Shown here: in pieces, positions 31,202 to 61,200 of the stretch | Layout: the number at the start of each line of letters is the position of its first letter | Numbering within the stretch: position 1 is the stretch's first letter | From: an uncultured Kordia sp. | Lineage (GTDB): Bacteria > Bacteroidota > Bacteroidia > Flavobacteriales > Flavobacteriaceae | Direction: 5' to 3' | Assembly (NCBI RefSeq): GCF_947489565.1 | Contig: NZ_CANLEA010000015.1 | Coordinates: 70,410-134,409 of the forward strand | DNA length: 64,000 nucleotides | Notes under the pieces: model-generated | The model's input: the letters and a program-made list of their open reading frames with translations, nothing else | What the model was told of the DNA's origin: nothing | Database searches by the model: none | Position numbers and translations under genes: made by a program

Positions 31202-31260
31202 TAAATGTATGATGCACTATAGTTTTGAAAAAAAAAGTTGGGGAGACATTTAGGGGGACA
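31202..31260 (-). promoter_or_regulatory. Direct-repeat activator site plus -7 box
   Basis: Minus strand TGTCCCC...TGTCTCC (12-nt period; starts 31260 and 31248). TACATTTA starts at 31209, 39 nt after the proximal repeat. Confidence 0.7.
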
Positions 31261-31422
31261 GGTTTTTAAGTTGTTGAAAATCAAAATATTAAATTCTTGT
31301 TCGAAAACGGAAAAATAACTTTTTATAAGTAGTTAATAATTGAAAGTGCTATTTTCTAGATTGATTTACTATCAATTTTTTCTGTTTTCTTTTGAATTTT
31401 ACGATTCAAATCAATTTAAAAG

Positions 31423-31501
31423 AAAGCGCCACCAATATCGATGACGCTTTAATACTTAGTTGCCCCAAATGTCTAATTGCCCTTTATTAGACTACAACTA
31501 A
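31423..31501 (-). repeat. Structured element plus terminator, copy 2 (3' of the 2126-aa gene)
   Basis: Minus strand TTAGTTG-TA-GTCTAAT-AAAGGGCA-ATTAGAC-ATTTGGGG-CAACTAA, then AAAGCGTCATC/GGTGGCGCTTT hairpin whose G-U pairs form only on the minus strand. Confidence 0.75.
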
Positions 31502-31551
31502 AAACCTAGTAAACTAAAACTAAATATTGCTTTTTTGTATTTTGATTGTTC

Positions 31552-34500
31552 TTATTCATTATCGGGTAATTGTTCTATAATTTGATACGTACTGAATCCT
31601 AAAAAGTTACTTGGATGCGCCAATACATTTTGTAAAATAAATGGCGTATCCGGATCTGTTCCTGAATATTGTGTATTGTTATCCAAATTAACATCGTCTG
31701 CATTGTAACCACTTACTACATACGTTGGAAAGTTTAAAAAGTTTCCAGCGTCATTGAGTACTTTCGATAGAATTTCTGGCGTATCAGGACTTACTCCAGA
31801 ATATTGTACAACGCTGTCTCCATTTACATTTCCTGCCCACATTGCCACAATATCCGTTGGCATTCCAAAGGTTGTTTGTGCATTGCTTCCATAGGTAATT
31901 TCATTGTTTGCATCTGTAAAATCAACAGTCGTAGAAATTTGTTTTAGCGTAATTGCAGAAGCTGTCATAATACTTAAGTGATTTCGGTGTTTTACCACAA
32001 TGTGATAATCTCCCGCAGGAACATTGTCAAAAGTTAATGGTGTTACCAAATCATCGTTTACATCTACAATATCGCCATCACGTTGTAAGATTCCAGATTT
32101 TCCAGCAATGACTGTAGTTGGATTGCTTGCATCACGTAGCTCTACCCAAATCCAATCGACTGTAGAATTATTTCCATTATCGCTAAGTCCAACAGTTTCA
32201 TTGATTGAAGCACCATCACCATACGGAGAATTGGCGTCATAAGTTCCTCCAGCAATTCTAAGATCATCTCGCATTAAGCTTTCTTCTCCCGTATTTGGAT
32301 TGAGTAAAGCACCTTGCAGAAATACATCCACATCGACAATGACAAAATCACAACTCGTTTCATTATAGCTAGCTTGCGCATCTTTATTTCCCCAATTGGT
32401 ATTACTATACGCTTCATTATCTACCAAAATACAATACAAATCATCATTGCCTTGTGCATTGAAATCCGTGATGATTCCATTGTTTCCATTTTGTACATTC
32501 AGACTTATTAATTCATTATTATCACAAAAAAGAGTTTTTAAAGCTACATTATTACTGAGATCAAGTGTTGTTAATCGATTTTGGAATAGATCTAAGGTTT
32601 CTAATACTGTATTCGTAGAAAAATCTGCAGTAGCGATCAAATTCCCATACACAACAATAGTTTTTAACGCTGTATTATTTGTGGTATTTAGACTTGTTAA
32701 CTGATTAGAATCTGCTGATAAACTTTCTAATAGGATGTTTTGTGAAATATCTAAACTTGACAATCCACAAGCATTTGCTGAGAGAGATACAAGGTTTCGA
32801 CTGTTAGAAATATCAAGTACTCCGATAGTATTGTCTGAAGTATTCAGATTTGTTAATCCAATAAAATCTTCAATTCCTGTGATATCTGTAATTCCTTGAT
32901 TGCTTATATTTAAACTTGTTACCGTTTCTATAATGGCTGTTGGCACTTGTCCATCGGCTGAAATATCGTCATAACCTAAAGCTTCTAAACGTGCTTCAAA
33001 GTTGGCATCTGGAATGGCTGTGTAGCGACAATATTGATCGCTAAAACTTGTGGTCACATCAATTCCTCCCCAATTAGAGGTACTGTAGACAGCATCATCT
33101 ACCAAAATACAGCTTAACGAAGGATTGTTGGTTGCTACAAAATTGGTAACGTTCATATTATTCCCATTCTGAATGTTTACAAATGTTAAATTGTTATCAT
33201 TTGCAACAAAAGATGTCAATGCCGTTTGAAGCGAAACATCAATCGTTGTGATGGAATTATTATCGCACCAAAATGTAGTTAATAATGTATTTGTGCTAAG
33301 ATCAATGCTTGTTAGCGCATTGTTTCCGCAACGCAAATCTAACAGTGCTGTGTTGTTTGAAACATCTAATATGTCAATGGAATTGTTATTACATTCCAAA
33401 TAAGTCAATGCGGTATTGGTAGAAACATCTAAACTACTTAAATTATTGAAAGAGCTTACCAATTGCTCAAGATTGGTATTTGCACTAAGATTTAAGGTTG
33501 CAATAGGTGTAAACTTTGTCCAAAGTATTTTTAATGCAGTATTGTTTGAAAGGTCTAAACTCGTAAATGTATTGAGAGTTGCATACAATTCTTCTAAAGC
33601 AGTAAAGTCTTCAATTCCCGTAATATCTGCAATACTTTGCGAATTGATGTCTAAGGTTGTTACCACTTCAATTAACGCAGTTGGTACTTGTCCGTCAGCA
33701 GAAATATCATCATAACCTAGCGCTTCTAAACGTGCTTCAAAGTTTGCATCTGGAACAGCAGTATATCTACAATAAGCTCCGTCCCTGAATGTTACTGTTA
33801 GATCCACATCTGTCCAGTATGTAGTGCTATACGCAGCATCGTCTACTAAAATACACGTTAGATTTGGATTGTTATCTGCTATAAACGTAGTCACATTGGC
33901 ATTATTCCCATTTTGTACATTCAAGTAATTTAAACTTGTATCGTTCGCATATAAACTTTGTAAAGCCGTTTGATTGCTTAGATCTAAGCTTTCAATAGCT
34001 GTATCATTGACACGTAACGTTATAAGATTTGTATTATTAGTCAAATCTAAGGCAGTAATATTCGTGTTTTCTAAGCGTACTGTTTCCAACAAAGGATTAT
34101 TAGAGAGATCAATACTTGCAAGTGGTGATCCGTAGCATTCTAACAATTCTAAATCAGGATGAACGCTCAAATCTAAAGTAGCAATATCTGTGTTATTAGT
34201 TCTAAATTCTACTAGTTGAACATTGTTACTAATATCGATACTTGCTAATCCACCATTTCCTTGTACGAATAGTTTTCTTAACTCTGTATTATTGGATACA
34301 TCGATCGTTGTTAGATTGCTACCTGCAAGATTTAGATTGGATAAATCCGTGTTATTAGACAGATCAATCGCAGTAATATTATTGCTATCAGCCGTTAAGG
34401 TGGTTAACAATACATTTTGTGTTACATCTAACGCTGTTAAATTGTTGAGTCTACAGTTTAAAGAGGTCAATGCTACAAAATCTTCAATTCCTGTTAAATC

Positions 34501-37500
34501 ATTGATACCTTTATTTGGAAGCGCTAAACTTGTAATTCCTTCAATTAATACTGTTGGTACTTGTCCATCTGCTGAAATATCATCATAGCCTAACGCTTCT
34601 AACTCTGCTTCAAAATTCGCATCAGGAATGGCAGTGTAGCGACAGTAGGTTTCAGAAAAAATTAAACCTGTATCAACTTGTGTCCAGTAAGTTGTACTAT
34701 AGGCAGCATCGTCTACTAATACACAGTTTAAATTGCTATTATTTGTCACGTTAAACGTGGTCATATTGCTATTGTTTCCGTTTCTGATGTCAATATGTTC
34801 TAAGATTCCCGTTTGTCCTTCAAACTTTGTCAGAACCGTTAAGCTAGTTAGATCTAATGAAGTAATTAATGAACCGTTTACTTTTAGCCAATCAAGTTGA
34901 ACGTTATTGGTAATATCTAGTGTACTTACATCAGTATTGTCAATGCGTAACTCGTCCAATAGTGGATTGTTAGTAACATCAATTGCTGTAATATTTGTTT
35001 TGTATAAGCGTAATTTTTTCAAGTTTATATTAGCACTTAGGTCTATCGTTGCAATGTCTGTTTCAAATGCTTCTAATATTTCTAACGCAATATTATTGCT
35101 TACATCTAATGTTACAATATTATTTGCAGGGCAATCCAGTCTGGTTAAGGCAGTGTTTGCAGAAACATCAAGTGCAGTAAGTTGATTAGCTCCTAGGTCT
35201 ATAATTTGTAAGTTTACGTTTTGAGATAAATCTATAGAAGTGATGTCATTTTGATTGGCAATTAGTGTCTCTAAGGCAATATTATTAGATAGATGTAACT
35301 GAGTTAAGTTATTTCTATCAACATCTAACGTAATTAAGGCTGTAAAGTCTTCAATTCCTGTTAAATCACTAATCGATTTGCTTTGTAGATCCAAAGAAGT
35401 TACCACTTCAATTAACGCTGTTGGCACTTGTCCATCTGCAGAAATATCATCGTACCCTAAAGCTTCTAATGCCGCTTCAAAATTAGTGTCAGGAATGGCT
35501 GTGTAGCGACAATACGTATCATTAAAGGAAGCTACTCCAGTATCAATGTTTGTCCAATTTGTAGTACTCCAAGCGGCATCATCTACCAAAATACACGTCA
35601 AAGCACTATTTCCTGAAGCGTTAAAATCCGCATCTAAAATAGCGGTATTGTTTCCATTTTTAGTATTTAAGAATGTCAAATTATTGTTACTGCATTCTAA
35701 ACGTGTTAGTGCAGGATTGTTGGAAACATCTAAGGTTGTTAAGTTATTATCCGAAACTCTTAATTGTGTTAATGCAGTTAAGTTTGAAACGTCAATACTA
35801 CTGATGTTAGCCCTAAGTATACTTAAGATTTCTAATAAGTTGTTTTGAGAAACATCTAAACTATTTATGCCCGTATCTTGAAAGTATAAAAATTTTAAAT
35901 TGACATTATTGGTAATATCAATGCCTGTGAGATTGGTCTGATCACGAAGATTAATGGTTTCAAGTAGCGTATTGTTGGAAACATCAATTGTTGTAAATAG
36001 ATTGCTTCTTAAATTTAGGAATGTCAGATTGGTGTTTTGACTAATATCAATTGTGCTGAGCTGATTGTATCTTCCTCTTATATAATCTAGTGTTGTATTT
36101 GCTCCTAGCGTCAACGATGCAATAGCATTATTATCAAACTCTAAGGTTTGTAAATTCATATTAGTACTTACATCCAAAGAAGTCAGTGAATTGTCTGAAC
36201 AATTCAAATCAACCAATGCCGTAAAGTCTGAAATACCTGTTAAATCCGATATAGATTGATTTGTTACGTCTAAAGTAGTTACAACTTCAATCAGCCCAGT
36301 AGGGACTTGTCCGTCGCTACTTATATCATCATATCCTAAAGCTTCCAATGCAGCTTCAAAGTTGGCATCTGGAATAGTAGTATATGGTATTTCATTAATG
36401 TCAAAACTTCCCAAACTAATAGGGCAGGAGCTTTCATTAAAAGCTACCCAAACATCATAGGTTCCTATAGCAAGATTTGTAATATCGGCAGTGCCCGCAT
36501 CATCATTAAAAACATGCGGATACGTTGTACCACCATCTACACTAAATTTAATTTGTGTTTCTGTAGCTTCATCATCAAAACTTACTTTTATAATTCCGTT
36601 ACTTTGTCCTGCATTCACGCCAACTGTTTCTGTAACAGAAGCTACAGGTGTTACAGTATTTGCCAGCGGCACAAAATATATAGCTCCAGAATTACTTGGA
36701 CTATCATCTTCATTTTGACCAATTAATAAGTAAGGAAAAGAAACGGCAACCGCTCTGTGTGCGAACTCATCCCAACTAGCACCAGAAGTTATTTTTGATA
36801 TTTGTGTCCAGTTATTGGTACCATCATCTTTAAATACATACAATGCATCTGAATTGATTGCTCCATTTCCAAAAGTTCCTACATATAAATATTCACCATC
36901 CAAAGCGACATCAGTTCCAAAACGTTGATCATTAAAACTATCTTTGTCATCATTTTGAATCATGACGCTATTGGCTTCTAAATAATCACCATTTATATCT
37001 GCTTCGTACACATAAACTCTTCCTTGATCTGCTTCAGGTGTTGTAGAAGTTTCAAAATTCATAGCACCAATGGCTAAATAATCTCCTTCCACATCAATAG
37101 ACCATCCAAAAGCTTCTGTAGTTTCAGTACCTCTTAATCTGTGTGTACGTGACCAAGTTCCATCATTTGCTTGATCCCATATTTGAACAGATCCAGCAGA
37201 GGCATTACCCACAGCAGAAAAATCTTGAGGTCCGCTAACATACGCACGTCCATTTTTTATTAATACATCATGACCAAATCGTGCGCCTGAATAGTTAGAT
37301 TGTACTTGCGGCTCTAATTTTGTTTCGGTATAGGTAAATGTATTGGTTCCATCATTTTCATATAAATACGCGCATCCACCAATGCATCCATTTCTTGCAC
37401 CTACAAGGATTAAATCACCTTCAATAGAAACAGCTTCTCCAAAACGAATTCCAGTAGTTCCATCGCTAGGTTCAAAAATGGCTACTTGAGTCCACGTATC

Positions 37501-37932
37501 TACACCATTATATTCAAATAAATACGCAGCTCCAGTATCTACATCGGCAGCATCTAGTTGCGAACGTGCGCCAACCAATAAGTAATTACCTTCTAAAGCT
37601 ACTGCAGAACCAAAATTATCTCCAGCAAAACTATCACTGGCAGATATGATGGTTTGTTCTGTCCAGTTTCCTGAACCATCATTTGTAAAAATATATACTT
37701 TTCCAGCGGCAGCAGCATTGCTACGTGAAACAACTGCAGCGATATTTCCGTCAATAGCAACACGTTCTCCAAATCTGTAATTGGAAGTAGCGTCACTAGC
37801 TTTTGTTTTTGAGGCGCCAGCAGTAGTTACTGTAAGCGTGCCAGAAAATAGACTTTCATCAAAAGGACAAGAGGTTTGTCCATACATGTACGAGGCAGCA
37901 CATACTAAGATAAAAAATAGGTTTCTTTTCAT
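31552..37932 (-). CDS. Giant secreted protein: FG-GAP beta-propeller, 5 capped LRR cassettes and shared C-terminal domain
   Basis: Signal peptide. FG-GAP repeats (RFGERVAIDG, NFGSAVALEG, RFGEAVSIEG...). Five xxPDxNFEAxLEALGYD cassettes. DVFLQGA...LMRDDLR...HRNHL...QIIEQLP domain at 31552-32340. Confidence 0.92.
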   Translation of the reverse strand: MKRNLFFILVCAASYMYGQTSCPFDESLFSGTLTVTTAGASKTKASDATSNYRFGERVAIDGNIAAVVSRSNAAAAGKVYIFTNDGSGNWTEQTIISASDSFAGDNFGSAVALEGNYLLVGARSQLDAADVDTGAAYLFEYNGVDTWTQVAIFEPSDGTTGIRFGEAVSIEGDLILVGARNGCIGGCAYLYENDGTNTFTYTETKLEPQVQSNYSGARFGHDVLIKNGRAYVSGPQDFSAVGNASAGSVQIWDQANDGTWSRTHRLRGTETTEAFGWSIDVEGDYLAIGAMNFETSTTPEADQGRVYVYEADINGDYLEANSVMIQNDDKDSFNDQRFGTDVALDGEYLYVGTFGNGAINSDALYVFKDDGTNNWTQISKITSGASWDEFAHRAVAVSFPYLLIGQNEDDSPSNSGAIYFVPLANTVTPVASVTETVGVNAGQSNGIIKVSFDDEATETQIKFSVDGGTTYPHVFNDDAGTADITNLAIGTYDVWVAFNESSCPISLGSFDINEIPYTTIPDANFEAALEALGYDDISSDGQVPTGLIEVVTTLDVTNQSISDLTGISDFTALVDLNCSDNSLTSLDVSTNMNLQTLEFDNNAIASLTLGANTTLDYIRGRYNQLSTIDISQNTNLTFLNLRSNLFTTIDVSNNTLLETINLRDQTNLTGIDITNNVNLKFLYFQDTGINSLDVSQNNLLEILSILRANISSIDVSNLTALTQLRVSDNNLTTLDVSNNPALTRLECSNNNLTFLNTKNGNNTAILDADFNASGNSALTCILVDDAAWSTTNWTNIDTGVASFNDTYCRYTAIPDTNFEAALEALGYDDISADGQVPTALIEVVTSLDLQSKSISDLTGIEDFTALITLDVDRNNLTQLHLSNNIALETLIANQNDITSIDLSQNVNLQIIDLGANQLTALDVSANTALTRLDCPANNIVTLDVSNNIALEILEAFETDIATIDLSANINLKKLRLYKTNITAIDVTNNPLLDELRIDNTDVSTLDITNNVQLDWLKVNGSLITSLDLTSLTVLTKFEGQTGILEHIDIRNGNNSNMTTFNVTNNSNLNCVLVDDAAYSTTYWTQVDTGLIFSETYCRYTAIPDANFEAELEALGYDDISADGQVPTVLIEGITSLALPNKGINDLTGIEDFVALTSLNCRLNNLTALDVTQNVLLTTLTADSNNITAIDLSNNTDLSNLNLAGSNLTTIDVSNNTELRKLFVQGNGGLASIDISNNVQLVEFRTNNTDIATLDLSVHPDLELLECYGSPLASIDLSNNPLLETVRLENTNITALDLTNNTNLITLRVNDTAIESLDLSNQTALQSLYANDTSLNYLNVQNGNNANVTTFIADNNPNLTCILVDDAAYSTTYWTDVDLTVTFRDGAYCRYTAVPDANFEARLEALGYDDISADGQVPTALIEVVTTLDINSQSIADITGIEDFTALEELYATLNTFTSLDLSNNTALKILWTKFTPIATLNLSANTNLEQLVSSFNNLSSLDVSTNTALTYLECNNNSIDILDVSNNTALLDLRCGNNALTSIDLSTNTLLTTFWCDNNSITTIDVSLQTALTSFVANDNNLTFVNIQNGNNMNVTNFVATNNPSLSCILVDDAVYSTSNWGGIDVTTSFSDQYCRYTAIPDANFEARLEALGYDDISADGQVPTAIIETVTSLNISNQGITDITGIEDFIGLTNLNTSDNTIGVLDISNSRNLVSLSANACGLSSLDISQNILLESLSADSNQLTSLNTTNNTALKTIVVYGNLIATADFSTNTVLETLDLFQNRLTTLDLSNNVALKTLFCDNNELISLNVQNGNNGIITDFNAQGNDDLYCILVDNEAYSNTNWGNKDAQASYNETSCDFVIVDVDVFLQGALLNPNTGEESLMRDDLRIAGGTYDANSPYGDGASINETVGLSDNGNNSTVDWIWVELRDASNPTTVIAGKSGILQRDGDIVDVNDDLVTPLTFDNVPAGDYHIVVKHRNHLSIMTASAITLKQISTTVDFTDANNEITYGSNAQTTFGMPTDIVAMWAGNVNGDSVVQYSGVSPDTPEILSKVLNDAGNFLNFPTYVVSGYNADDVNLDNNTQYSGTDPDTPFILQNVLAHPSNFLGFSTYQIIEQLPDNE

Positions 37933-37949
37933 AAGAATAGAATGATAGG

Positions 37950-38111
37950 TTATGATTTGTTGTTGAGTTCTTTTAAAAAGTTTTCAAATTGTGATAATGA
38001 TTCTAATTCGGCTTTCATGATTTCTGTTTTAGATTTCAATTTTTCCAAAGAAGCAGCTTTTTTATTCTTTCTAGAAAATAAATTTTGAAGGAGCGATGGA
38101 AGCTTTTTCAT
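37950..38111 (-). CDS. Small basic coiled-coil protein, 53 aa (not in ORF track)
   Basis: MKKLPSLLQNLFSRKNKKAASLEKLKSKTEIMKAELESLSQFENFLKELNNKS. It sits between the direct-repeat promoter and the 2126-aa gene (17-nt gap). Confidence 0.65.
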   Translation of the reverse strand: MKKLPSLLQNLFSRKNKKAASLEKLKSKTEIMKAELESLSQFENFLKELNNKS

Positions 38112-38141: not shown

Positions 38142-38200
38142 CAATACTAGGAAGATTTCTTAGTTTAAAAAAGAAATTATAGGGTGCAGAATAGGGTGCA
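38142..38200 (-). promoter_or_regulatory. Direct-repeat activator site plus -7 box
   Basis: Minus strand TGCACCCTA-ttc-TGCACCCTA (starts 38200 and 38188). TAGTATTG starts at 38149, 39 nt after the proximal repeat. Confidence 0.72.
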
Positions 38201-41390: not shown

Positions 41391-41504
41391 AGTTGCAAAG
41401 ATGGTGATCAAAAAAAATGATTCATCAGAAAATCATTCACACTGCAAAATATAAAAATGAAAACTTTTTTATGAGAAAACCTTAGATTTTATACTGAAAT
41501 AATA

Positions 41505-42209: not shown

Positions 42210-42282
42210 AGTAATGTGAATTTGTACACTTCCAAATTTAACAGTGTACACATTACATTGTATGCGTATTTCTACGTGATTT

Positions 42283-43989: not shown

Positions 43990-44046
43990 TGCGACCATTT
44001 GCTACCTTATAAAACAATGCTTTTTTTGGTTTTCAACCTAAGTTTG
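43990..44046 (+). promoter_or_regulatory. Direct-repeat activator site plus -7 box
   Basis: TGCGACC at 43990 and TGCTACC at 44000 (10-nt period). A perfect TAAGTTTG starts at 44039, 39 nt after the proximal repeat. Confidence 0.72.
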
Positions 44047-52762: not shown

Positions 52763-54319
52763 ATGAAATACTCCTGCTTTCTTTTGGTATTACTTTTTAC
52801 CACTTTTTCTTTTTCACAAGAAATAGATACTACACTGGTACAACTAGAAGAAAAGTTAGCAAATTCAACTTCAGAGACAGAAAAGATAAAAGCAATGCTT
52901 GTGCTGGGCGAATATGAATTGGATCATAATTTTAGCAGAGCAGAATATATCATTACAGAAGCTTTTGATCTATCACAAAAAAATAAAAACGCTGTTACAG
53001 ATCATTACAAAGCTTTAATTCAAATTCAATTAGGAGTCTTAAAACGAAGAAAAAGTGAACATGCAGCAGCCATCAAACATTACCTAACTGCGTTGGACTT
53101 TTTTGAAAGAGAAAAAGATACGGCAAACATGGCCGATGTGTATCATAATATAGGAACCGTTCATAAATTTCAAAAAGATTTTACGGCTTCGTTTTCTAAT
53201 TATGACAAATCTTTACAACTCAATAGATCCATCAATAATAAAGAAGGAATTGCATTAGCATTACTCATGAAAGGAAGCAATTATAGAGCGCTAAAAAAGC
53301 TAGATTCTGCCGAAATTTATTATAAAAAATGCAAAGATATATTTGTAGCTATCAATGATAGCAAAGGTCTACAACAAGTCAATAATTTCTTGGTGTTACT
53401 CTATCTAAGAATGAATAAGGTAGAAGAAGCTTTGCAACTGAATCAAAGTAATATTGCGATAGCTAAAAAGAACAATGAAAAGTTAAACTTGGTGACCAAT
53501 TATATAAAGGCATCAGACATTTACTATAAAGAGAAAGAATATCGAATTGCAGGAAAATATATAGATTCAGCTTTAAAACTGTCTAAAAAAGAAGGATTCA
53601 AGGACAGAATTGCATTTGCGTATGGCAAGAAAAGCAGGTTATGGTATAAACTAGAAAACTATAAATCGGCTTATTTTTCACACCGAAAATACAAAAGCTA
53701 TTCAGATTCATTATTTAATATAGATAATACGAAGAAGATTCAGGAATTAGAATTAAAGTTTAAATTTCAACAAGAAAAACGAGAAGTACAGTTATTGGCC
53801 GATAACGAATCTGCGAAGAAAAAAATATATCTTATTCTATTTATCATCACACTTATATTGAGTGCTATTATTGCTTTTTTAGTCAAAAGAGATTTTAAAT
53901 ACAAAAAACGGCTGCTTGAATTAGAGAATAAAACTTTATTGCGAGAAAAAGAACAAATCACAAAAGCCTTCAATCAATTACAAAATAGTACAAATGCTGA
54001 AGAACGTATCAAAGCAAAGCAAGAAATACTAAAACTAAAAATTCTTACCGACGACGATTGGTTACATTTCAGAGATAAATTTGAATTGCTACATCCTAAC
54101 TTTTTCAATCTTTTAAAAGACAGTAATTTCCAATTCACAAAGTCAGAAATCCGATTCTTAATACTGAAAAAATTAGACTTAGAAACCAAAGAAATTGCAA
54201 ATATGACAGGAGTTTCTAACGATAGTGTATTAAAGACACAATACAGACTTCGCAAGAAACTTGACATTGCTAAAACCATTGAAATCATCAGTTTTCTTGA
54301 GCATTCTACTCAAAACTAA
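52763..54319 (+). CDS. Membrane-anchored TPR sensor with C-terminal LuxR-type HTH
   Basis: Signal peptide (MKYSCF start preferred), TPRs, TM helix IYLILFIITLILSAIIAFLV, and HTH FTKSEIRFLILKKLDLETKEIANMTGVSNDSVLKTQYRLRKKL. Confidence 0.88.
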   Translation: MKYSCFLLVLLFTTFSFSQEIDTTLVQLEEKLANSTSETEKIKAMLVLGEYELDHNFSRAEYIITEAFDLSQKNKNAVTDHYKALIQIQLGVLKRRKSEHAAAIKHYLTALDFFEREKDTANMADVYHNIGTVHKFQKDFTASFSNYDKSLQLNRSINNKEGIALALLMKGSNYRALKKLDSAEIYYKKCKDIFVAINDSKGLQQVNNFLVLLYLRMNKVEEALQLNQSNIAIAKKNNEKLNLVTNYIKASDIYYKEKEYRIAGKYIDSALKLSKKEGFKDRIAFAYGKKSRLWYKLENYKSAYFSHRKYKSYSDSLFNIDNTKKIQELELKFKFQQEKREVQLLADNESAKKKIYLILFIITLILSAIIAFLVKRDFKYKKRLLELENKTLLREKEQITKAFNQLQNSTNAEERIKAKQEILKLKILTDDDWLHFRDKFELLHPNFFNLLKDSNFQFTKSEIRFLILKKLDLETKEIANMTGVSNDSVLKTQYRLRKKLDIAKTIEIISFLEHSTQN

Positions 54320-54334: not shown

Positions 54335-54392
54335 TGTCCAGTTTTTGTCTAGTTGCCAATATTAAAGATACGCGCTGTTTTTCGTAGTGTTG
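54335..54392 (+). promoter_or_regulatory. Direct-repeat activator site plus -7-like box
   Basis: TGTCCAG at 54335 and TGTCTAG at 54346. TAGTGTTG starts at 54385 (+39). Confidence 0.7.
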
Positions 54393-54397
54393 TAGAC

Positions 54398-54874
54398 ATG
54401 AAAAAAATATACTGTATTCTTTTTATAATTACATTGATCTTAGGTGTTATCATTGTGCTCTTTCTAAAGTATAAAAAACGACTACTTGAATTAGAAAACA
54501 AAGTCTTATTACAAGAAAAAGAACAAATAAAAACGGCGCTACATGAGCTCAAAAATGGTCCTAGTGATGAAGAACGCATCAAAGCAAAACAAGAAATTAT
54601 AAAGCTCAAAATTTTAATTGATGATGATTGGATTCGGTTTAGAGATAAATTTGAATTGCTCTATCCTAATTTTTTAAATACGTTGACGGCTTCAGAGTAT
54701 CATTTTACAAAATCTGAAAAACGATTCCTAATGCTTAAAAAATTAAATCTTGAAACCAAAGAAATTGCGAACATGGTTGGTGTTTCCAATGATAGCGTTT
54801 TAAAAACGCAATACAGACTTCGAAAAAAACTGGCTATTGATAAAACTACCGATATTATTAACTTTTTAGAGTAA
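54398..54874 (+). CDS. Sensor-less paralog: TM helix, coiled coil and LuxR-type HTH only (158 aa)
   Basis: MKKIYCILFIITLILGVIIVLFLKYKK...SNDSVLKTQYRLRKKL. It aligns with the C-terminal third of both flanking regulators. The frame is intact and directly follows a promoter. Confidence 0.78.
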   Translation: MKKIYCILFIITLILGVIIVLFLKYKKRLLELENKVLLQEKEQIKTALHELKNGPSDEERIKAKQEIIKLKILIDDDWIRFRDKFELLYPNFLNTLTASEYHFTKSEKRFLMLKKLNLETKEIANMVGVSNDSVLKTQYRLRKKLAIDKTTDIINFLE

Positions 54875-54944
54875 ACAATCATTTTTACACATAAATACTG
54901 AAAAATGATGTTCTATAATCAATTAGATTAGGTAATTTTAAACC

Positions 54945-56543
54945 ATGAAAAATGTCTTATTTGTTTTTATGCTGTGTATTTCTTTTACAGCTACTTCTCA
55001 AGAAATAGATACTACACTTGTACGATTACAAGAAAAACTGCATAACGCTCCATCAGATTCTATAAAGGTAGAAACATTACTAGACTTAGGAAAATATCAA
55101 TTTGGACGTGATAATTATAGTGCCGAAGATTACTTGCTAAAAGCCATTGATTTTATAGAAAACGAAGCGTATTCCTCCAATCATCAGTTGGCTGTAGCGT
55201 ATAGAGTTTTAGGTGCTGTAGAACGAAGAAAGGGAAATTATAAGAACACATTTACCAATTACTATAAAGCATTACGATTATCGTCAGAGCCAGAGCATGT
55301 GGCAACTGTTCATCACAATTTGGGTACAGCAAAACTTTTTCAATATGAATTTCCAGCAGCTATAGTTGAGTTTCGCAAAGCAATTTCTATTTGGGAAGGC
55401 GTACATAATTATGCAGATGCAGCTGGAAGTTATCATGAAATAGGCGGCGTATATCGTTCTATGCAACAAATGGATTCCGCCAGATTTTATTATGATAAAG
55501 CTTTAAAACTATTTGCCATAGGATACAAAGACGATACCCTAAAATATATAAATAGATATTATGGAATCCAGAAAAGTCTTGGATTGGTATTATTGAAAGA
55601 AAAAAAATATGACAGTGCGCTTTCTAAATTCAAAGAAGCAAGAAACCATTTTTCGAAACCCAATCATGATAAGAGTCGATTAATTATAATTAACAATAGT
55701 ATCTCAGAAACATATTACCGTAAAGGCAACTATAAAGAAGCAATTCGTTATGCAAACGAAGCCCTTTCTATAAGTATGTCAGAAGGTTTAAAACATCGTA
55801 TTGCTGCGGCTTTAAGAAGACGAAGCAGATTACACAAAAAAATGGGCAATCTCAATGCTGCCCTAGACGATTATGTATTGTATAAAAAATATTCGGACTC
55901 ACTGATAAATGCAGAAACGATAAAGAAGATTCAAGCACAGGAATTAAAGTATGTATTTGAAAAAGAAAAATTGGCCGATAGTATAACATTTGCACAAGAA
56001 AAAAGAAAAATTGAATTGGTTGCAGACAATGAATCTTCCAAGAAAAAAATATATTTTGCGCTTTTAATCATCACACTGATTCTCAGTTCTATAATTGCAT
56101 TTTTAGTAAAAAGAGATTTCAAATACAAAAAACGTGTCCTAGAATTAGAGAATAAAGCATTAGTACGAGAAAAAGAACAAATTACGAATGCTTTTAATAA
56201 ACTTAAAAATAGTACCAATGCCGAAGAACGCATCAAAGCAAAGCAAGAGATCTTAAAACTAAAAATTCTGACCGATGATGATTGGGTACATTTTAGAGAC
56301 AAATTTGAATTACTTTTTCCTGATTTTCTAACGGATATAAAAGACGCTAATTTTCAATTCACAAAGTCTGAAATTCGTTTTTTAATTCTAAAAAAACTAG
56401 GCTTAGAAACCAAAGAAATTGCAAATATGACGGGAGTTTCCAATGATAGTGTATTAAAAACACAATACAGACTTCGAAAAAAACTGTCACTTGATAAAAA
56501 TATTGACATAATTCACTTTTTAGAGCAATCCGCTGAAAACTAA
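54945..56543 (+). CDS. Membrane-anchored TPR sensor with C-terminal LuxR-type HTH
   Basis: Signal peptide, TPRs, TM helix IYFALLIITLILSSIIAFLV. The C-terminal ~170 aa are nearly identical to those of 52763-54319. Confidence 0.88.
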   Translation: MKNVLFVFMLCISFTATSQEIDTTLVRLQEKLHNAPSDSIKVETLLDLGKYQFGRDNYSAEDYLLKAIDFIENEAYSSNHQLAVAYRVLGAVERRKGNYKNTFTNYYKALRLSSEPEHVATVHHNLGTAKLFQYEFPAAIVEFRKAISIWEGVHNYADAAGSYHEIGGVYRSMQQMDSARFYYDKALKLFAIGYKDDTLKYINRYYGIQKSLGLVLLKEKKYDSALSKFKEARNHFSKPNHDKSRLIIINNSISETYYRKGNYKEAIRYANEALSISMSEGLKHRIAAALRRRSRLHKKMGNLNAALDDYVLYKKYSDSLINAETIKKIQAQELKYVFEKEKLADSITFAQEKRKIELVADNESSKKKIYFALLIITLILSSIIAFLVKRDFKYKKRVLELENKALVREKEQITNAFNKLKNSTNAEERIKAKQEILKLKILTDDDWVHFRDKFELLFPDFLTDIKDANFQFTKSEIRFLILKKLGLETKEIANMTGVSNDSVLKTQYRLRKKLSLDKNIDIIHFLEQSAEN

Positions 56544-56558
56544 ATATTTATTAAAAAC

Positions 56559-56616
56559 TGTCCAGTTTTTGTCTAGCAACATGTAACTGTAATCACTTGT
56601 TTTACCCGTAGGTTTA
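56559..56616 (+). promoter_or_regulatory. Direct-repeat activator site plus -7 box
   Basis: TGTCCAG at 56559 and TGTCTAG at 56570. TAGGTTTA starts at 56609 (+39). Confidence 0.72.
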
Positions 56617-56639
56617 TACTGTTTTAATCTAAACTTACT

Positions 56640-59600
56640 ATGAAACAAAAATACCTACTACTATTTACCTTATTCATCTCGTTGCATTTTCAAGCCCAAG
56701 AATGTAATTCATTAATGAAACCTGTTTCGATGCAGGAAAGAACAAACGAAGCCACATTGATTGTGGAAGGAAAAGTGATCAGCAGCGAAAGCTATTGGGA
56801 TACGCCGCATCAAAATATATATACCATTCATGAAATTTCGGTATATAAAAATGCCAAAGGAACAACCGCAAGGACAATTTTTATTGAAACACAAGGCGGA
56901 CAAGTTGACAATCAACTTCAAGAAGTTTCTAGTACAGCAAACTTAAAAAATGGATATGAAGGTGTGTTTTTTCTAAAAAACTCCAATCATACATTTAACA
57001 TTCAGCAGACTACGTATACAATGGTTGCTGCTGCGCAAGGATATATAAAATATGATCGTGCAACCAATAAAGCATTCGGTGTATTTGATAGGTATCAGTC
57101 TATTACAAACGATTTATATCCTACACTAGAACAAGCTACCAAAAAACGAATGGCAATCATTCAAGAAAGACCAACAACTCCAATCATGAATGTATTGATG
57201 GTAGCGCCAACAATATCAAGTTTTGCGCCTACAACGATAACCGCAGGAACAAAATCTACGCTTACTATAAACGGAACAGATTTCGGAACTGCTGCAGGAC
57301 AGGTATTATTTTCAAGAGCCAATGACGGAGGCGCTACGCATGTTGCCGCGCTGGATTCTCAGATAATTATGTGGAGTGATGAATCAATCGTAGTTGAGGT
57401 TCCTCATACTGCTGGAACTGGAACGATTCAGGTCATGAATGCTGATGGAACAACAACAAGTACAGACACACTTACAATACCGTACAGTCATACCAATGCG
57501 ATTTCAACTTCAAACGTGGCATATCCAACTACGATAGAAACGACTAATGGAAGTTTTGCTTTTACATATCATGATGATTTTAATACAAGTGCCGCAAAAC
57601 CATACTTTGAAGAAGCTTTTGACTTATGGAATTGTGAAAGCGGAATCAATTTTGAATTTGGAGCCACGACAGCAGTGGACGTCGTAGCAGATGATGGAAT
57701 TAATATTGTACGTTTTGATAATGGTAGTGAATTGCCAACAGGCGTTCTTGGGCAAGTCGTGACAAGATCCACAAATATATGCACAGGTACAGGAAATGCG
57801 TTTGCCAGAGAAATGGACATTACTTGGAATGACGATATTTATTTTTACTATGGAGATGGAATCCCAAATCCGTCGCAATACGATTTTAAATCGGTGGCTT
57901 TACACGAATTAGGACACACACACCAACTAGCCCATGTAATCAACACAGATAATATTATGCATTATAATTTAGGACCTGGCGTGTCTAAATTTGTATTATT
58001 TGCAGATGATATTGATGCGGCTAACTATACAATGAGTGTCTTTTCGGCGCCACAACAATGCAGTCGTATGACAGATAATAACAAATGTATTTATGTGCCA
58101 GATGATAATTTTGAAGCTTATTTAGAAAGCAATGGCATGGGAAATGGAATTGCGAATGATGATACTGTGACCAAAACGAACATTGCTGGAGTCATCACGT
58201 TGGATGTGTCCAACTTAAACATTTCAGACTTAACAGGGATTCAAAGTTTTACAAGTCTACAATCGTTAAACTGTAGTAATAATCTATTCACGAGTGTTGA
58301 CCTCAGTAAAAACAGTCTCTTAGAAACACTACACATTGAAGATGGCGTACTCAATGACTTAGATATTTCTCAAAACAACGCGTTGATCAATCTGTATTGT
58401 CAAAATAATAATTTATCAGATTTAAACCTTATTCATAACGGAGCGCTCGTAAATTTAGATTGTTCTGAAAATAACTTAACGCTGCTAAATGTTACTCAAA
58501 ATACAAATCTACTTGAACTAAATTGTAGTAATAACGGCATAAGTTCTATAAATCTTACTCAAAATACAGTCTTAGAACATCTAAACTTTTCTCAAAACAA
58601 TTTGCCAAACTTAGATGTAACCCAATGTCCAAATTTAGCATATTTAATTGCCGATAATAATGATCTCACAAGTGTAAACATCACTGTAAACACAGCTTTA
58701 AAAGAACTTTCTATTCCGGACAATCAAATAACAACATTAGATTTAGTTCCGAATACAATATTAGAAAAAGTAAATGCTAACAATAATAATTTAGACTTTC
58801 TAAATATTGCAAATGGGAATAATGCAATTATTGAGTTTACGGCTACTGGAAATCCAGCTTTGACCTGTATCAATGTAGACGATGAAACGGAAAGTTATAT
58901 GTCTACTTGGCTAAAAGACACGGAGGCAGCTTTTAGTGCACATTGCTATGAAACATACATTCCCGATGCTAATTTTGAAAACTATCTGGAAAACAATGGC
59001 ATGGGAAATGGAATTGCTAATGATATGTACGTGACCACTGCGAACATAGATATAATCATAGATTTAGATGTGAAAAACTTAAGCATTTCCGATTTAACAG
59101 GTATTGAAGGATTTAAAGCATTAAGAATTTTAAATGTAAAAACAAATACACTTTCCGCTATCAATCTTTCAAACAATCTCAACTTAACATCTGTGGACGT
59201 TTCCAGTAATAACTTGGTAAGTTTAGATCTGACAGCAAATACAAATCTAACAAATATTGATGCGGAATTTAATGACTTAACCAGCATAGACATCACTGGT
59301 TTAACAGCGTTGTTGACCTTAGATTATGAAGGAAATAACATTACAAATATTGATGTGACAACAAATATCGCATTGACAGAAATACGAGGAGATGACAACA
59401 CAATTGGCACCATTGATCTTTCCAATAATCCAGCATTAAAAACACTGCGGTTAGAAAATGCAGGTTTAAACAGTATCGATCTCAGCAATAATCTTGTAAT
59501 TAGAACGATTAGAATTGGAAATAATAACCTTACGAGTATTGATGTCTCTGGAAACCCAGAAATCTATTCATTTCATGTGAGCAACAATCAACTAACGTTT

Positions 59601-61037
59601 TTAGATATCAAAAACGGAAACAACACCAACATTCCTCCAATCTTTTTTAACGCAACTGGGAATCCAAATTTGGAATGTATCAATGTCGATAATGTTGCTT
59701 TTTCACAAGGAAATTGGCCTTTTAAAGACAATGCATCTTCTTATGGAGAAAACTGTTATGAGACTACGCATGTGCCAGATGCTAATTTTGAAGACTATTT
59801 AGAAAGTAATAATATGGGAAATGGAATTCCTAATGATGGTTTGGTGCTCACTTCAAAAATAGAAACAGTAACAACGCTCAATATTCCGTATCAAAATATT
59901 GCCGATCTCACAGGAATAGAAGACTTTACAGCATTGCAATCATTGTATTGTTACAACAACAACCTTACAAGTTTAGATGTATCCCAAAATCTTTTATTAG
60001 AAGAATTAGACTGTGTAGAAAATCAAATAACGAGTTTGGATTTGAGTCAAAATACAGCCTTAGAATATGTGTTTTGCCAAACCAATGCCTTGACAAGTTT
60101 AAATGCTGCAAATGGCGCGAATCTGAATATTGTAAATTTTGAGATTTACGAAAATCCAAATCTAACCTGCGTAGTCGTGGATGATGCTAGCTATTCTACA
60201 GGTTTTTGGACGAATAAAGATGATCACACTGTTTATAATGATGTCAGTTGTGCTATTGAAATTTCACCAAAAGTATTTTTACAAGGAGCCGCTTTAAATC
60301 CAAATACAGGAGAAGAAACGTTGATGCGTGATGATTTAAGAGTAGCAGGAATGTTGCCAACCACAAGTCCGTATAGTGATAACGCAACCTGTGATGCTAC
60401 TATTTTTAATACTACAGGAGCTGATGCAATTGTCGATTGGGTTTTTGTAGAACTCAGAGATACAACCATCAATACAGCAATCAAAGCACGTCAATCTGCA
60501 TTGCTGCAACGTGATGGTGATGTCGTAGCTGTAGACGGAATTTCGAATCTGAATTTCAACGTTCCATCAGGGAATTACTATGTGGCACTAAAGCACAGAA
60601 ATCACTTGGGAATCATGACAATGAATACAATTGTTTTAACTGCTGTGACCACTTCCGTAGATTTTACAAACACTAGCAATCCAATTACATTCGGAAGTAA
60701 TTCACAAACGACCTTTGAAATGCCAAGTGGAATCGTTGCTATGTGGACAGGAAACACAAATGCAGATATTGCAATTCAATACCTAGGAGGAACTGCTGAT
60801 ACGCCAACTATTTTGGCAACCGCGCTGAATGATGCTGGAAACTTCCTAAACTTACCTACCTATAGTGTTGTTGGATATAAAATAGACGATGCCAATATGG
60901 ACGGAAACAGTCAATACTCAGGAACAAATCCAGATACGCCTTTCATCCTTCAAAATGTATTGGCGCATCCTGGAAATCTCCTAAACTTTAGCACGTATCA
61001 AATCATAGAACAATTGCCAGAAAACTTTAATAACTAA
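56640..61037 (+). CDS. Secreted zinc metalloprotease-like (matrixin/metzincin) protein with IPT/TIG domain, 3 capped LRR cassettes and shared C-terminal domain
   Basis: Signal peptide. PTISSFAPTTITAG IPT-like domain. HELGHTHQLAH plus Met-turn IMHY. Three PDxNFExYLExNxMGNG cassettes. PKVFLQGA...QIIEQLPE domain from 60255. Confidence 0.88.
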   Translation: MKQKYLLLFTLFISLHFQAQECNSLMKPVSMQERTNEATLIVEGKVISSESYWDTPHQNIYTIHEISVYKNAKGTTARTIFIETQGGQVDNQLQEVSSTANLKNGYEGVFFLKNSNHTFNIQQTTYTMVAAAQGYIKYDRATNKAFGVFDRYQSITNDLYPTLEQATKKRMAIIQERPTTPIMNVLMVAPTISSFAPTTITAGTKSTLTINGTDFGTAAGQVLFSRANDGGATHVAALDSQIIMWSDESIVVEVPHTAGTGTIQVMNADGTTTSTDTLTIPYSHTNAISTSNVAYPTTIETTNGSFAFTYHDDFNTSAAKPYFEEAFDLWNCESGINFEFGATTAVDVVADDGINIVRFDNGSELPTGVLGQVVTRSTNICTGTGNAFAREMDITWNDDIYFYYGDGIPNPSQYDFKSVALHELGHTHQLAHVINTDNIMHYNLGPGVSKFVLFADDIDAANYTMSVFSAPQQCSRMTDNNKCIYVPDDNFEAYLESNGMGNGIANDDTVTKTNIAGVITLDVSNLNISDLTGIQSFTSLQSLNCSNNLFTSVDLSKNSLLETLHIEDGVLNDLDISQNNALINLYCQNNNLSDLNLIHNGALVNLDCSENNLTLLNVTQNTNLLELNCSNNGISSINLTQNTVLEHLNFSQNNLPNLDVTQCPNLAYLIADNNDLTSVNITVNTALKELSIPDNQITTLDLVPNTILEKVNANNNNLDFLNIANGNNAIIEFTATGNPALTCINVDDETESYMSTWLKDTEAAFSAHCYETYIPDANFENYLENNGMGNGIANDMYVTTANIDIIIDLDVKNLSISDLTGIEGFKALRILNVKTNTLSAINLSNNLNLTSVDVSSNNLVSLDLTANTNLTNIDAEFNDLTSIDITGLTALLTLDYEGNNITNIDVTTNIALTEIRGDDNTIGTIDLSNNPALKTLRLENAGLNSIDLSNNLVIRTIRIGNNNLTSIDVSGNPEIYSFHVSNNQLTFLDIKNGNNTNIPPIFFNATGNPNLECINVDNVAFSQGNWPFKDNASSYGENCYETTHVPDANFEDYLESNNMGNGIPNDGLVLTSKIETVTTLNIPYQNIADLTGIEDFTALQSLYCYNNNLTSLDVSQNLLLEELDCVENQITSLDLSQNTALEYVFCQTNALTSLNAANGANLNIVNFEIYENPNLTCVVVDDASYSTGFWTNKDDHTVYNDVSCAIEISPKVFLQGAALNPNTGEETLMRDDLRVAGMLPTTSPYSDNATCDATIFNTTGADAIVDWVFVELRDTTINTAIKARQSALLQRDGDVVAVDGISNLNFNVPSGNYYVALKHRNHLGIMTMNTIVLTAVTTSVDFTNTSNPITFGSNSQTTFEMPSGIVAMWTGNTNADIAIQYLGGTADTPTILATALNDAGNFLNLPTYSVVGYKIDDANMDGNSQYSGTNPDTPFILQNVLAHPGNLLNFSTYQIIEQLPENFNN

Positions 61038-61142
61038 AATATTCCCAATTGTAAATTCCTGAAAAATGGAATCTAACTATGAATATAAACAAGACGAACC
61101 TTATTGTGTTAATCCGTTGAAAATTAAATATATGCTAAAAAC

Positions 61143-61200
61143 TGTCCAGTTTTTGTCCAGTGTTATTTGCACATTATTAGTGGATTTACCTGTAGGTTTG
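61143..61200 (+). promoter_or_regulatory. Direct-repeat activator site plus -7 box
   Basis: TGTCCAG at 61143 and 61154. A perfect TAGGTTTG starts at 61193 (+39). Confidence 0.75.

Follow-up and report, generated by a model that had tools for sequence, protein, structure and literature searches.

SusR, a membrane-anchored regulator of the Bacteroidota, has been known since the 1990s. [quoted passage not shown] Their predicted motifs are direct repeats, as in the present locus, the two sites being separated by 67 or 77 bp in contrast to the 10–12 bp period described below (Ravcheev et al., 2013; PMC3878776). A sister class of the regulators studied here is represented by BguR from Formosa agariphila, which was established as an activator in beta-glucan utilization by a combination of deletion and RNA-seq, and which is encoded beside its target genes, where the intergenic sequence contains a conserved motif (bioRxiv 10.64898/2026.01.10.698779). 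The BguR preprint presents this motif as a logo only, without a tandem-heptamer reading, a distance to the −7 box or TPR variants (bioRxiv 10.64898/2026.01.10.698779).

We analyzed a 64,000-nt stretch of DNA from an uncultured Kordia sp., termed the window, for which a sequence-only reading had proposed an apparently undescribed array of surface proteins controlled by membrane-anchored TPR-LuxR sensors. The claim of novelty has to be narrowed, since the sister class is on record as a 2026 preprint and SusR was known before, but the TPR variant and the promoter layout are absent from the searchable papers. A literature search on the TGTCCAC motif and on TPR-LuxR one-component systems returned nothing relevant.

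Architecture of the TPR-LuxR regulators

The full-length regulators of the window begin with a signal peptide, followed by a TPR domain in the periplasm, a single transmembrane (TM) helix, a coiled coil and an HTH that is a divergent member of the LuxR/NarL type. Signal peptide and TM segment are visible in the regulator alignment. Pfam recognized the TPR domain only, and no kinase or receiver domain was found in the window regulators by Pfam. In an AlphaFold model of the full-length regulator 54945–56543, the TPR domain occupies residues 23–299, a long helix residues 303–420, and an HTH bundle residues 426–531; a fold search with this model returned TPR proteins only and was uninformative about the HTH. 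The AlphaFold model of the C-terminal domain (pLDDT 93) gave LuxR/NarL-type DNA-binding domains as its top Foldseek matches, with probabilities of 0.99–1.0 for domain-sized alignments, and it shares the four-helix HTH fold with NarL, which aligned to it with an rmsd of 1.8 Å over 58 residues. In profile comparisons, 48 of 51 family members match Pfam GerE (PF00196) at E ≤ 0.1 (best 8.5e-8), with a window protein scoring 16.2 bits against a curated Pfam cut-off of 23.5 bits, and the HTH family profile detects StyR (9e-5) and NarL (4e-4) in the PDB. As judged by these profiles and the predicted structure, the putative DNA-binding domain of the regulators is a LuxR/NarL-type HTH.

The window regulators have the same output module as BguR (bioRxiv 10.64898/2026.01.10.698779) and the general plan of its class, namely a signal peptide, a periplasmic sensor, a single TM helix, a helical linker and a GerE-like HTH, with no HisKA, HATPase or receiver domain. 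They differ from BguR in the sensor, which in BguR is a tandem beta-propeller with a Y_Y_Y domain; this arrangement is absent from the window regulators, whose TPR domain resembles the FimS sensor. The Y_Y_Y domain was found only in a BguR-like paralog of 934 aa encoded beside SusC/SusD on another contig (C31) of this genome, and the C-terminal domain of this paralog belongs to the family common to the window regulators. The targets differ as well. BguR serves beta-glucan utilization loci (PULs; SusC/SusD with GH16, GH17, GH30 and others), an association that the window regulators lack, whereas the predicted targets in the window are giant LRR, FG-GAP, DUF285 and peptidase proteins. More generally, the neighbors of the window regulators encode LRR, FG-GAP, DUF285, PKD and M10 proteins, a DASS transporter and a GGCT enzyme. 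No canonical T9SS sorting domain was found at the C-termini of the giant proteins by NCBIfam, and the label of surface protein therefore derives from their signal peptides and repeat types.

Against the HTH profile of the window family, SusR scored an E-value of only 5.6e-4. The SusR ortholog encoded beside GH13 and GH97 matches DUF6377, the Pfam family to which SusR belongs, at 5.6e-89, whereas no window regulator matches this Pfam family at E ≤ 0.01, and membership in the SusR family was rejected. The BT3442 family (NCBIfam NF053779), with partial matches far below its cut-off, was likewise rejected as the identity of the regulators.

The TPR sensor and TM region match the NCBIfam FimS model over about 390 positions, with E-values down to 3e-25, and FimS-like TPR sensors are found elsewhere in fusions with histidine kinases, with adenylate cyclases and with SpoIIE phosphatases. 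The FimS sensor kinase of Porphyromonas gingivalis has a similar periplasmic TPR sensor and TM helix, but the window proteins lack the kinase, and their predicted output is direct DNA binding. With the NarL/FixJ/LuxR (GerE) proteins the window regulators have in common the four-helix HTH fold, the sequence signature in most family members, and putative half-sites of heptamer size. In contrast to those proteins they are membrane-anchored, have no receiver or autoinducer domain and possess two extra N-terminal helices bearing a conserved W..F...F motif; their half-sites occur strictly in tandem, and the window protein scores below the GerE cut-off. Tandem 7-bp half-sites that repeat about every 11 bp, in a constant location ahead of the core promoter, are known from the pho box of PhoB, and DNA-binding domains tethered to the inner membrane from ToxR and CadC. 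However, the pho box replaces the −35 element, and PhoB, ToxR and CadC use OmpR-type winged helices. The window regulators have a LuxR-type domain instead, and their sites are found further upstream than the Bacteroidota −33 position.

Six promoters with a common distance between repeat and −7 box

Direct reading of the sequence revealed a TG-initiated tandem heptamer at each of six promoters. The sequence-only reading had given the coordinates of the six repeats, periods of 10–12 nt, and a proximal repeat always starting 39 nt before a TAnnTTTG-like box; the coordinates are all correct, the box sequences agree with those quoted, the start-to-start distance is 39 nt in all six cases, and the periods at sites 1–6 are 12, 12, 10, 11, 11 and 11 nt.

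On the minus strand, the operator of site 1 (31240..31260) is a TGTCCCC/TGTCTCC tandem with the proximal repeat starting at 31248 and the −7 box TACATTTA (31202..31209, minus strand) at 31209; downstream lies a small ORF of 59 aa (48 aa from an internal Met; 30992..31171, minus strand). Site 1 is an orphan with no adjoining regulator gene, which counts against the pairing of repeats and regulators; in another Kordia genome, the homologous promoter is located behind a 556-aa regulator gene. The operator of site 2 (38180..38200, minus strand), two copies of TGCACCC, is found 19 nt past the stop codon of a gene for a TPR-TM-LuxR regulator of 556 aa with the recognition helix SLEAIKSTRFRLKKKL (38219..39889, minus strand). 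Its proximal repeat starts at 38188 and its box TAGTATTG (38142..38149, minus strand) at 38149. An ORF of 53 aa (37950..38111, minus strand) separates this promoter from the gene for its predicted target, a 2126-aa FG-GAP/LRR protein with a signal peptide (31552..37932, minus strand).

The remaining four sites are on the plus strand. Site 3 (43990..44006; TGCGACC/TGCTACC) is divergent from the gene for a 553-aa TPR-TM-LuxR regulator with the recognition helix TLSSIKSARYRIRKKL (42283..43944, minus strand). Its proximal repeat starts at 44000 and its box TAAGTTTG (44039..44046) at 44039, followed by the gene for a giant DUF285/PKD protein of about 2800 aa (44069..52464, plus strand), for which ATG 44069 is the likely start, leading into a signal peptide. 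Site 4 (54335..54352; TGTCCAG-N4-TGTCTAG) comes after the gene for a 518-aa TPR-TM-LuxR regulator with the recognition helix SNDSVLKTQYRLRKKL (52763..54319, plus strand), with the proximal repeat at 54346 and the box TAGTGTTG (54385..54392) at 54385. This promoter precedes a sensor-less regulator copy of 158 aa, consisting of the TM helix, coiled coil and HTH (54398..54874, plus strand), which is conserved in three Kordia genomes, and then a full-length regulator of 532 aa (54945..56543, plus strand) whose recognition helix is identical to that of 52763–54319. Site 5 (56559..56576), again TGTCCAG-N4-TGTCTAG, has its proximal repeat at 56570 and its box TAGGTTTA (56609..56616) at 56609, and its predicted target is a 1465-aa TIG/M10 peptidase/LRR protein (56640..61037, plus strand). 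At site 6 (61143..61160; TGTCCAG-N4-TGTCCAG), the proximal repeat starts at 61154 and the box TAGGTTTG (61193..61200) at 61193, upstream of the gene for a giant LRR protein (61236..64000, plus strand) that runs off the window and probably starts at ATG 61236, with a signal peptide thereafter. The further claim that four of the sites lie within about 50 nt of the end of a TPR-LuxR gene agrees with the measured distances of 16–46 nt.

The boxes have at most one mismatch to TAnnTTTG, with exactly one at each of sites 1, 2, 4 and 5, and the measured distance from box start to ATG is 13–43 nt, within the 10–50 nt expected for the −7 box of the Bacteroidota primary sigma factor. No clear −33 TTTG was seen at the canonical 19–21 nt upstream of the −7 box at sites 3, 5 and 6, and the promoter assignment is therefore made from the −7 box alone. 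A weak or absent −33 element is expected in activator-dependent promoters but is not diagnostic of them.

To put the common distance into perspective, the box as scored occurs at 0.0079 per position across this genome of 34% G+C. In a hand-compiled set, the box is located exactly at +39 in about 11 of ~35 distinct regulator-adjacent repeats (binomial p about 3e-15). A genome-wide scan of the distance between TG-initiated repeats and the box produced a peak at d = 39, with 15 repeats at this offset compared to 0–11 (average about 3.5) at the others. A secondary count of 11 was observed at d = 33. Because orthologous promoters are not independent of one another, counts of this kind exceed the number of independent events.

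Specificity and conservation of the operators

The candidate operators are rare in the 6.4-Mb genome. TGTCYAG-N4-TGTCYAG occurs in five copies, all within this cluster, two of them just outside the window (contig C15:138302 and 146130), and all five have the box at +39 and are within about 45 nt of an ATG. Since sites 4–6 share one operator, the window provides four independent operator types rather than six. TGTCYCC-N5-TGTCYCC has a single copy, which is site 1; and the other types (TGCACCC, TGCKACC, TGTGCAT and others) occur in one or two copies in this genome, those of sites 2 and 3 being unique. All types other than the orphan site 1 adjoin a paralogous regulator gene. Conversely, about 14 of the 20 paralogous regulators of the genome have, by reading, a TG-initiated tandem repeat near the 3' end of their gene. 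For several paralogs (C5, C12, C14 and C7) the box that accompanies the repeat is less clear or is found at 33, 34 or 40, and the paralog at C4:67057 has the operator both behind and before its own gene, the upstream copy at a different box distance.

Both the half-site sequence and the repeat period track the recognition helix and subfamily of the neighboring regulator. Helices containing K-S pair with TGC half-sites and those containing K-K with TGTC half-sites, in other genera as well, and the two regulators 52763–54319 and 54945–56543 and the sensor-less copy have both recognition helix and operator in common. The repeats are very probably docking sites, predicted from sequence, of the adjoining membrane-spanning TPR-LuxR regulators.

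In two other Kordia species (G016 and G011), operator, box and spacer length are retained at the orthologous promoters. Each of the nine spacers compared measures 32 nt, with zero indels and an identity of 28–81% (mean 50%). The site 2 operator also persists after the orthologous regulator genes in further Kordia genomes, among them G016, G005 and G011. Loci from across the phylum were collected with the C-terminal regulator alignment. Such a repeat is present within 300 nt after the stop codon in 34 of 77 homologous regulators, and across 80 loci of other Bacteroidota an offset of 39 was seen 18 times, one of 40 twice, and every other value at most three times each; in family members elsewhere the distance is mostly 39 and sometimes 38 or 40. 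No downstream TG repeat was found in the Bacteroides paralogs, in nine loci with a located HTH motif among fifteen (L116–L130), so that either some family members lack the layout or these paralogs have their targets elsewhere. The same promoter layout, as recognized in these loci, recurs across the phylum Bacteroidota.

Proposed activation mechanism and its implications

We propose that the adjoining TPR-LuxR regulators bind the tandem heptamers and activate their targets from a fixed distance, and assign this explanation as a whole a probability of about 0.75. A single protein contains the periplasmic TPR sensor, the single TM helix, the long cytoplasmic coiled coil and the C-terminal HTH, and the two HTH domains of a regulator dimer would contact the two heptamers head-to-tail, with the heptamer spacing (10, 11 or 12 bp) as a probable property of the regulator subfamily. 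That a symmetric coiled-coil dimer would have to bind head-to-tail is a point against the explanation. The proximal heptamer would be positioned at about −50, just upstream of the weak or absent −33 element, from where the bound regulator may recruit or stabilize RNA polymerase as an activator. The predicted targets are the adjoining genes, which encode giant exported or surface proteins of the LRR, FG-GAP, DUF285 and peptidase types. One target consists of the sensor-less regulator copy and the second full-length regulator, which potentially form a feed-forward or autoregulatory loop, and the one operator found at five promoters of the cluster would be served by two sensors (52763–54319 and 54945–56543) in addition to the sensor-less copy. 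Regarding the initial proposal of activator sites for TPR-LuxR sensors, the rarity, adjacency and conservation of the repeats, their covariation with the recognition helix and the HTH fold support them as putative sites, whereas the word activator is inferred from the position of the sites upstream of a weak −33 region and from the behavior of BguR and SusR.

The same evidence for binding sites would apply if the adjoining regulators used the repeats as repressor or anti-activator sites, or if the sign differed between sites. LuxR/NarL-type proteins are able to repress, and the operator that precedes its own gene at C4:67057, at a different box distance, could reflect autorepression. However, the six sites are located upstream of the −33 region rather than over the −33 and −7 elements or the transcription start, the −33 elements show the weakness typical of activator-dependent promoters, and polymerase contact, unlike steric hindrance, is expected to require a rigid distance from the −7 box. 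In addition, both membrane one-component regulators that have been studied in the phylum, BguR and SusR, act as activators, and we consider repression unlikely.

Somewhat less likely still is that the repeats are real but read by another factor, either a soluble NarL-type response regulator or the polymerase itself via a UP-like element, with the spacing inherited along with duplicated cassettes. Duplication of regulator genes and promoters as cassettes is clear for sites 4–6, with two copies beyond the window, and for site 1 compared to its homologous promoter (L006). Yet a shared factor does not explain why heptamer and period change with the neighboring recognition helix, and it leaves the genome uniqueness of each variant unaccounted for. 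Moreover, the divergence of the spacers to 28–50% identity without a single indel, together with the same 39 nt in unrelated operator types of distant genera, indicates selection on the distance and not descent alone. A coincidence of AT-rich repeats with −7-like octamers picked by eye could appeal to the abundance of such octamers in a genome of this composition and to a register chosen in the sequence-only reading. The unbiased scans nevertheless peak sharply at 39 only, with the binomial probability given above, and the register is set by the invariant TG that opens each heptamer. A chance origin of the 39-nt spacing is excluded, and coincidence as an account of the whole pattern is negligible.

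With activation by the adjoining regulators as the preferred reading, we give even odds to the broader proposal that TPR-sensor regulators form a large Bacteroidota family with a rigid layout of tandem TG-initiated heptamers, the proximal copy 39 ± 1 nt from the −7 box, a period set by the subfamily and a readable helix code, such as K-S for TGC and K-K for TGTC. If this is true, the sequence by itself would suffice to predict the regulons, most of them limited to one promoter and comprising giant surface proteins, cytolysin-like lipoproteins and other exported proteins, and the regulator/operator pairs would represent natural orthogonal switch parts for Bacteroidota. Uncharacterized tetratricopeptide repeat proteins of the regulator type number in the dozens per Bacteroidota genome, with about 20 in the present one and over 20 in one from Bacteroides. 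If the repeats are operators, each regulator could be assigned its target promoter from the sequence, and the BguR class would expand beyond sugar sensing to include a second sensor type and targets outside PULs. The constant 39 nt would place a concrete constraint on the contact of an activator with the unusual Bacteroidota polymerase. Operators of this kind would also point to giant surface proteins, peptidases and cytolysin-like proteins that are switched on by an external signal. The marine flavobacterium Kordia includes algicidal strains, and signal-controlled exported proteases and adhesin-like proteins would therefore be of ecological interest.

Architecture of the six promoters

The sequence-only reading had described six promoters in which a direct repeat of varying period stands exactly 39 nt before a Bacteroidota -7 box, in four cases close to the end of a regulator gene, and upstream of giant surface genes, small ORFs or a truncated regulator. 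Direct reading of the sequence confirmed all of its coordinates and boxes. The repeats are tandem TG-initiated heptamers: TGTCCCC/TGTCTCC at site 1 (starts 31260 and 31248, minus strand), TGCACCC twice at site 2 (38200 and 38188, minus strand), TGCGACC/TGCTACC at site 3 (43990 and 44000), and TGTCCAG/TGTCYAG at sites 4 (54335/54346), 5 (56559/56570) and 6 (61143/61154). Sites 4-6 thus share one operator, which leaves four operator types in the window. The periods are 12, 12, 10, 11, 11 and 11 nt, and in all six cases the box begins 39 nt after the start of the proximal repeat (TACATTTA, TAGTATTG, TAAGTTTG, TAGTGTTG, TAGGTTTA and TAGGTTTG for sites 1 to 6, respectively). The boxes of sites 1, 2, 4 and 5 each depart from the consensus at one position. 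The proximity of four of the six sites to the end of a regulator gene was measured as 16-46 nt. An ATG lies 13-43 nt from the start of each box and, as had been claimed, opens a signal-peptide protein (44069, 56640 and 61236), a small ORF (38111; 31171 or 31140) or, behind site 4, a 158-aa sensor-less regulator (54398). The giant targets are putative surface proteins, judging from their signal peptides and LRR, FG-GAP, PKD and DUF285 repeats; a canonical T9SS sorting domain was not found in the four C-termini tested.

The small ORFs behind the site 2 and site 1 promoters (37950-38111 and 30992-31171, both minus strand) are rich in Lys and Phe, as is one behind the homologous promoter of another Kordia (locus L006, after position 2480). 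Their sequences contain LFSRKNKK, LFKRFFKSK or LFKKLFQSK followed by a coiled-coil-like tail, and they may belong to a conserved family of leader peptides or small proteins. Divergent from site 3, the regulator gene at 42283-43944 (minus strand) is followed on the same strand by genes for a gamma-glutamylcyclotransferase-like protein (41568-42251) and a DASS-family (sodium:sulfate/citrate) symporter (39972-41411), and two regulator-giant-gene cassettes flank this pair.

Primary-sigma promoters of Bacteroides and Flavobacterium reportedly carry TAnnTTTG at -7 and TTTG at -33. If this consensus is assumed, the start of the proximal heptamer falls near -50 and that of the distal heptamer at about -60 to -62. 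At sites 3, 5 and 6, a clear -33 TTTG was not seen at the canonical spacing, as would fit activator-dependent promoters. The proximal heptamer keeps a constant distance to the core promoter and the position of the distal heptamer shifts with regulator subfamily, which suggests that the protomer on the proximal heptamer would contact the polymerase, while the geometry of the dimer would set the position of the distal heptamer.

The regulators and their predicted circuit

Four regulator ORFs (38219-39889 and 42283-43944, minus strand; 52763-54319 and 54945-56543, plus strand) are built alike, with a signal peptide at the N-terminus, TPR repeats, a single hydrophobic segment around residues 370-390, a coiled coil and a conserved C-terminal block (FTKSE..L..KL.L..KEIA......S....K..YRLRKKL). 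The sensor-plus-TM part matches the sensor of the Porphyromonas FimS kinase (NCBIfam; best E 3e-25, well under the cut-off), and the C-terminus gave weak NCBIfam matches to sigma-70 region 4, NarL-type regulators and the BT3442 family. The AlphaFold model of a 532-aa regulator (pLDDT 83) places TPR repeats at 23-299, followed by a single long helix (303-420) and a bundle of helices (426-531). For the last 93 residues, modelled separately from 51 homologs, the pLDDT was 93, and the leading Foldseek matches of this model were LuxR/FixJ/NarL-type DNA-binding domains (EvgA, StyR, DosR, GerE and NarL, the last with an rmsd of 1.8 A over 58 residues). Pfam GerE was matched at E <= 0.1 by 48 of the 51 family sequences (best 8.5e-8), with a window regulator scoring 16.2 bits against a cut-off of 23.5 bits, and the family profile matched StyR (9e-5) and NarL (4e-4) in the PDB. 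Because of this architecture and these fold and profile matches, the proposed label of TPR-LuxR membrane one-component sensors is a fair description. The source genome, placed in the genus Kordia by named homologs, encodes about 20 such paralogs, and the same type of TPR sensor also occurs in fusions with histidine kinases, adenylate cyclases and SpoIIE phosphatases.

Overall identity between the sensors encoded at 52763-54319 and 54945-56543 is 51%, but their recognition helices are identical to each other and to that of the sensor-less copy (54398-54874, plus strand; TM, coiled coil and HTH), which is kept at the same place in three Kordia genomes (the source genome, G016 and G011). Site 4 would drive this copy, whose ATG lies 6 nt past the end of the box, and the predicted mRNA is therefore nearly leaderless. 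Since the second sensor gene (54945-56543) begins 70 nt past the sensor-less copy, it is probably driven by site 4 as well. Site 1 is an orphan; as in another Kordia (L006) its homologous promoter follows the gene for a 556-aa regulator and the nearest operator in the source genome is that of a regulator on contig C12, it would be a relic or controlled in trans.

Proposed assignment of the repeats to the regulators

A TG-initiated tandem repeat was read near the 3' end of about 14 of the roughly 20 paralogs. The box lies at 39 nt for TGTGCAT (twice) and TGTCTGC/TGTCTAT and at 40 nt for TGTTACC (twice) and TGTAGTA (twice); it is less clear for TGTAGAC, TGTAACC, TGATACC and TGTCCCY, and some paralogs have ill-defined boxes or boxes at 33-34 nt. 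In the 6.42-Mb assembly (101 contigs, 34% G+C), where the window spans C15:70410-134409, TGTCYAG-N4-TGTCYAG occurs five times, always on the plus strand of the cluster and with a box at +39 and an ATG shortly behind. Two copies lie beyond the right end of the window (C15:138302 and 146130; L035:4302 and 12130). One of these precedes the gene for a 2591-aa LRR protein and the other a short ORF followed by a 270-aa protein, the C-terminus of which, judged by eye, resembles a T9SS sorting domain. The other operator types tried occur once each, except TGTTACC, which occurs on either side of its own regulator gene. Every type tried except that of site 1 adjoins a paralogous regulator gene.

The cluster is syntenic in G016, where the regulators show 87% and 51% identity, and to some extent also in G011. 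In the orthologous promoters, heptamers and box are unchanged and the spacer has diverged: all nine TGTCYAG promoters of three genomes have a 32-nt spacer free of indels, with a pairwise identity of 28-81% (mean 50%). Identical recognition helices go with identical heptamers, and differing helices with differing heptamers, in every Kordia genome examined. K-S-[TA]-R helices pair with TGC half-sites not just in Kordia but, as an independent case, also in Sungkyunkwania (L101), and K-K-[AT]-R helices pair with TGTC half-sites in many genera. The repeat period likewise tracks the subfamily, being 12 in the '...LTKTDIEVCSF...', 11 in the 'FTKSE' and 10 in the 'LTK(A/T)(E/D)REIC' group.

A genome-wide scan (TG-initiated 7-mers with at most one mismatch and a period of 10-12, against distance to TAnnTTT[GA]) peaked at 39 nt, with 15 cases versus an average of about 3.5 elsewhere and a secondary count of 11 at 33 nt. 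With boxes scored as TA plus at least five of the six fixed positions (0.0079 per position), about 11 of some 35 distinct regulator-adjacent repeats, a count compiled by hand, have a box at exactly +39 (p ~3e-15).

A scan of GTDB species genomes with the C-terminal domain kept 80 loci, 77 of them usable, including Flagellimonas, Maribacter, Spongiivirga, Lewinella, Fluviicola, Saprospiraceae, Cytophagales and Bacteroidales. A TG-initiated repeat, mostly TGTCCAC-N4-TGTCCAC, lies within 300 nt past the stop codon in 34 of the 77. Counting both strands, these loci contain 134 such repeats, and the box stands at +39 in 18 cases, which include many orthologs and are not 18 independent events, at +40 in two, and at other offsets at most three times each. 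Between them, Lewinella, two more Bacteroidota lineages and the Flavobacteriaceae group contribute no fewer than four independent +39 events. Adjacency and uniqueness, conservation, covariation and recurrence, as independent computational lines, agree in supporting the proposal that the repeats are the predicted operators of the adjacent TPR-LuxR regulators.

In Flagellimonas amphidinii (L076:1944-3173), the one locus examined, a TGTCCAC-N4-TGTCCAC promoter of the homologous regulator with a box at +39 precedes a gene whose lipoprotein product contains a thiol-activated cytolysin domain (PF01289, 1.3e-34). Similar promoters of homologous regulators (L080-L113) occur in Flagellimonas, Maribacter and relatives, most of them with an inverted repeat, TGTCA-N6-8-TGACA, directly behind the -7 box. 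The gut genome of Bacteroides sp. OM05-12 (G031) gave 34 matches to the family HTH profile, more than 20 of them strong, in open frames mostly of 520-660 aa. At the nine scannable loci of L116-L130 in this genome, the 300 nt that follow the paralogs yielded no TG tandem repeat; two loci have in common an ACAAAC...CCGTATGTTTG segment instead.

Relation to SusR and BguR

SusR and BguR, the phylum's two studied membrane one-component regulators, are both activators. The motifs predicted for SusR comprise two sites separated by 67 or 77 bp (Ravcheev et al., 2013; PMC3878776). A SusR-type Bacteroides regulator adjoining SusA-like GH13 and SusB-like GH97 genes (genome reached via L069) matched Pfam DUF6377 at 5.6e-89, but the HTH profile of the Kordia family at 5.6e-4 only. 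Membership of the Kordia regulators in the SusR family was rejected because they have no DUF6377 match. BguR carries its beta-propeller/Y_Y_Y sensor between a signal peptide and a TM helix, with a linker leading to a GerE HTH, and was shown experimentally to activate a laminarin PUL, its deletion abolishing a more than 80-fold induction; the preprint gives a motif logo, without promoter layout or TPR variants (bioRxiv 10.64898/2026.01.10.698779). One paralog in the source genome resembles BguR (934 aa, with a Y_Y_Y domain; L137:3860-6664, contig C31) and precedes a SusC/SusD pair. By its C-terminal domain this paralog falls into the family of the window regulators, which makes the TPR proteins a second sensor type on the BguR output module. 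The intergenic region at this paralog (L137, 6960-7080) contains repeated ACACCNCAACATT units, an operator style different from the TG heptamers.

In the literature searched, no paper was found on the TPR type or the 39-nt rule. The comparison supports the view that the Kordia regulators are membrane-spanning one-component GerE regulators that combine a TPR sensor with targets outside PULs and a defined promoter layout.
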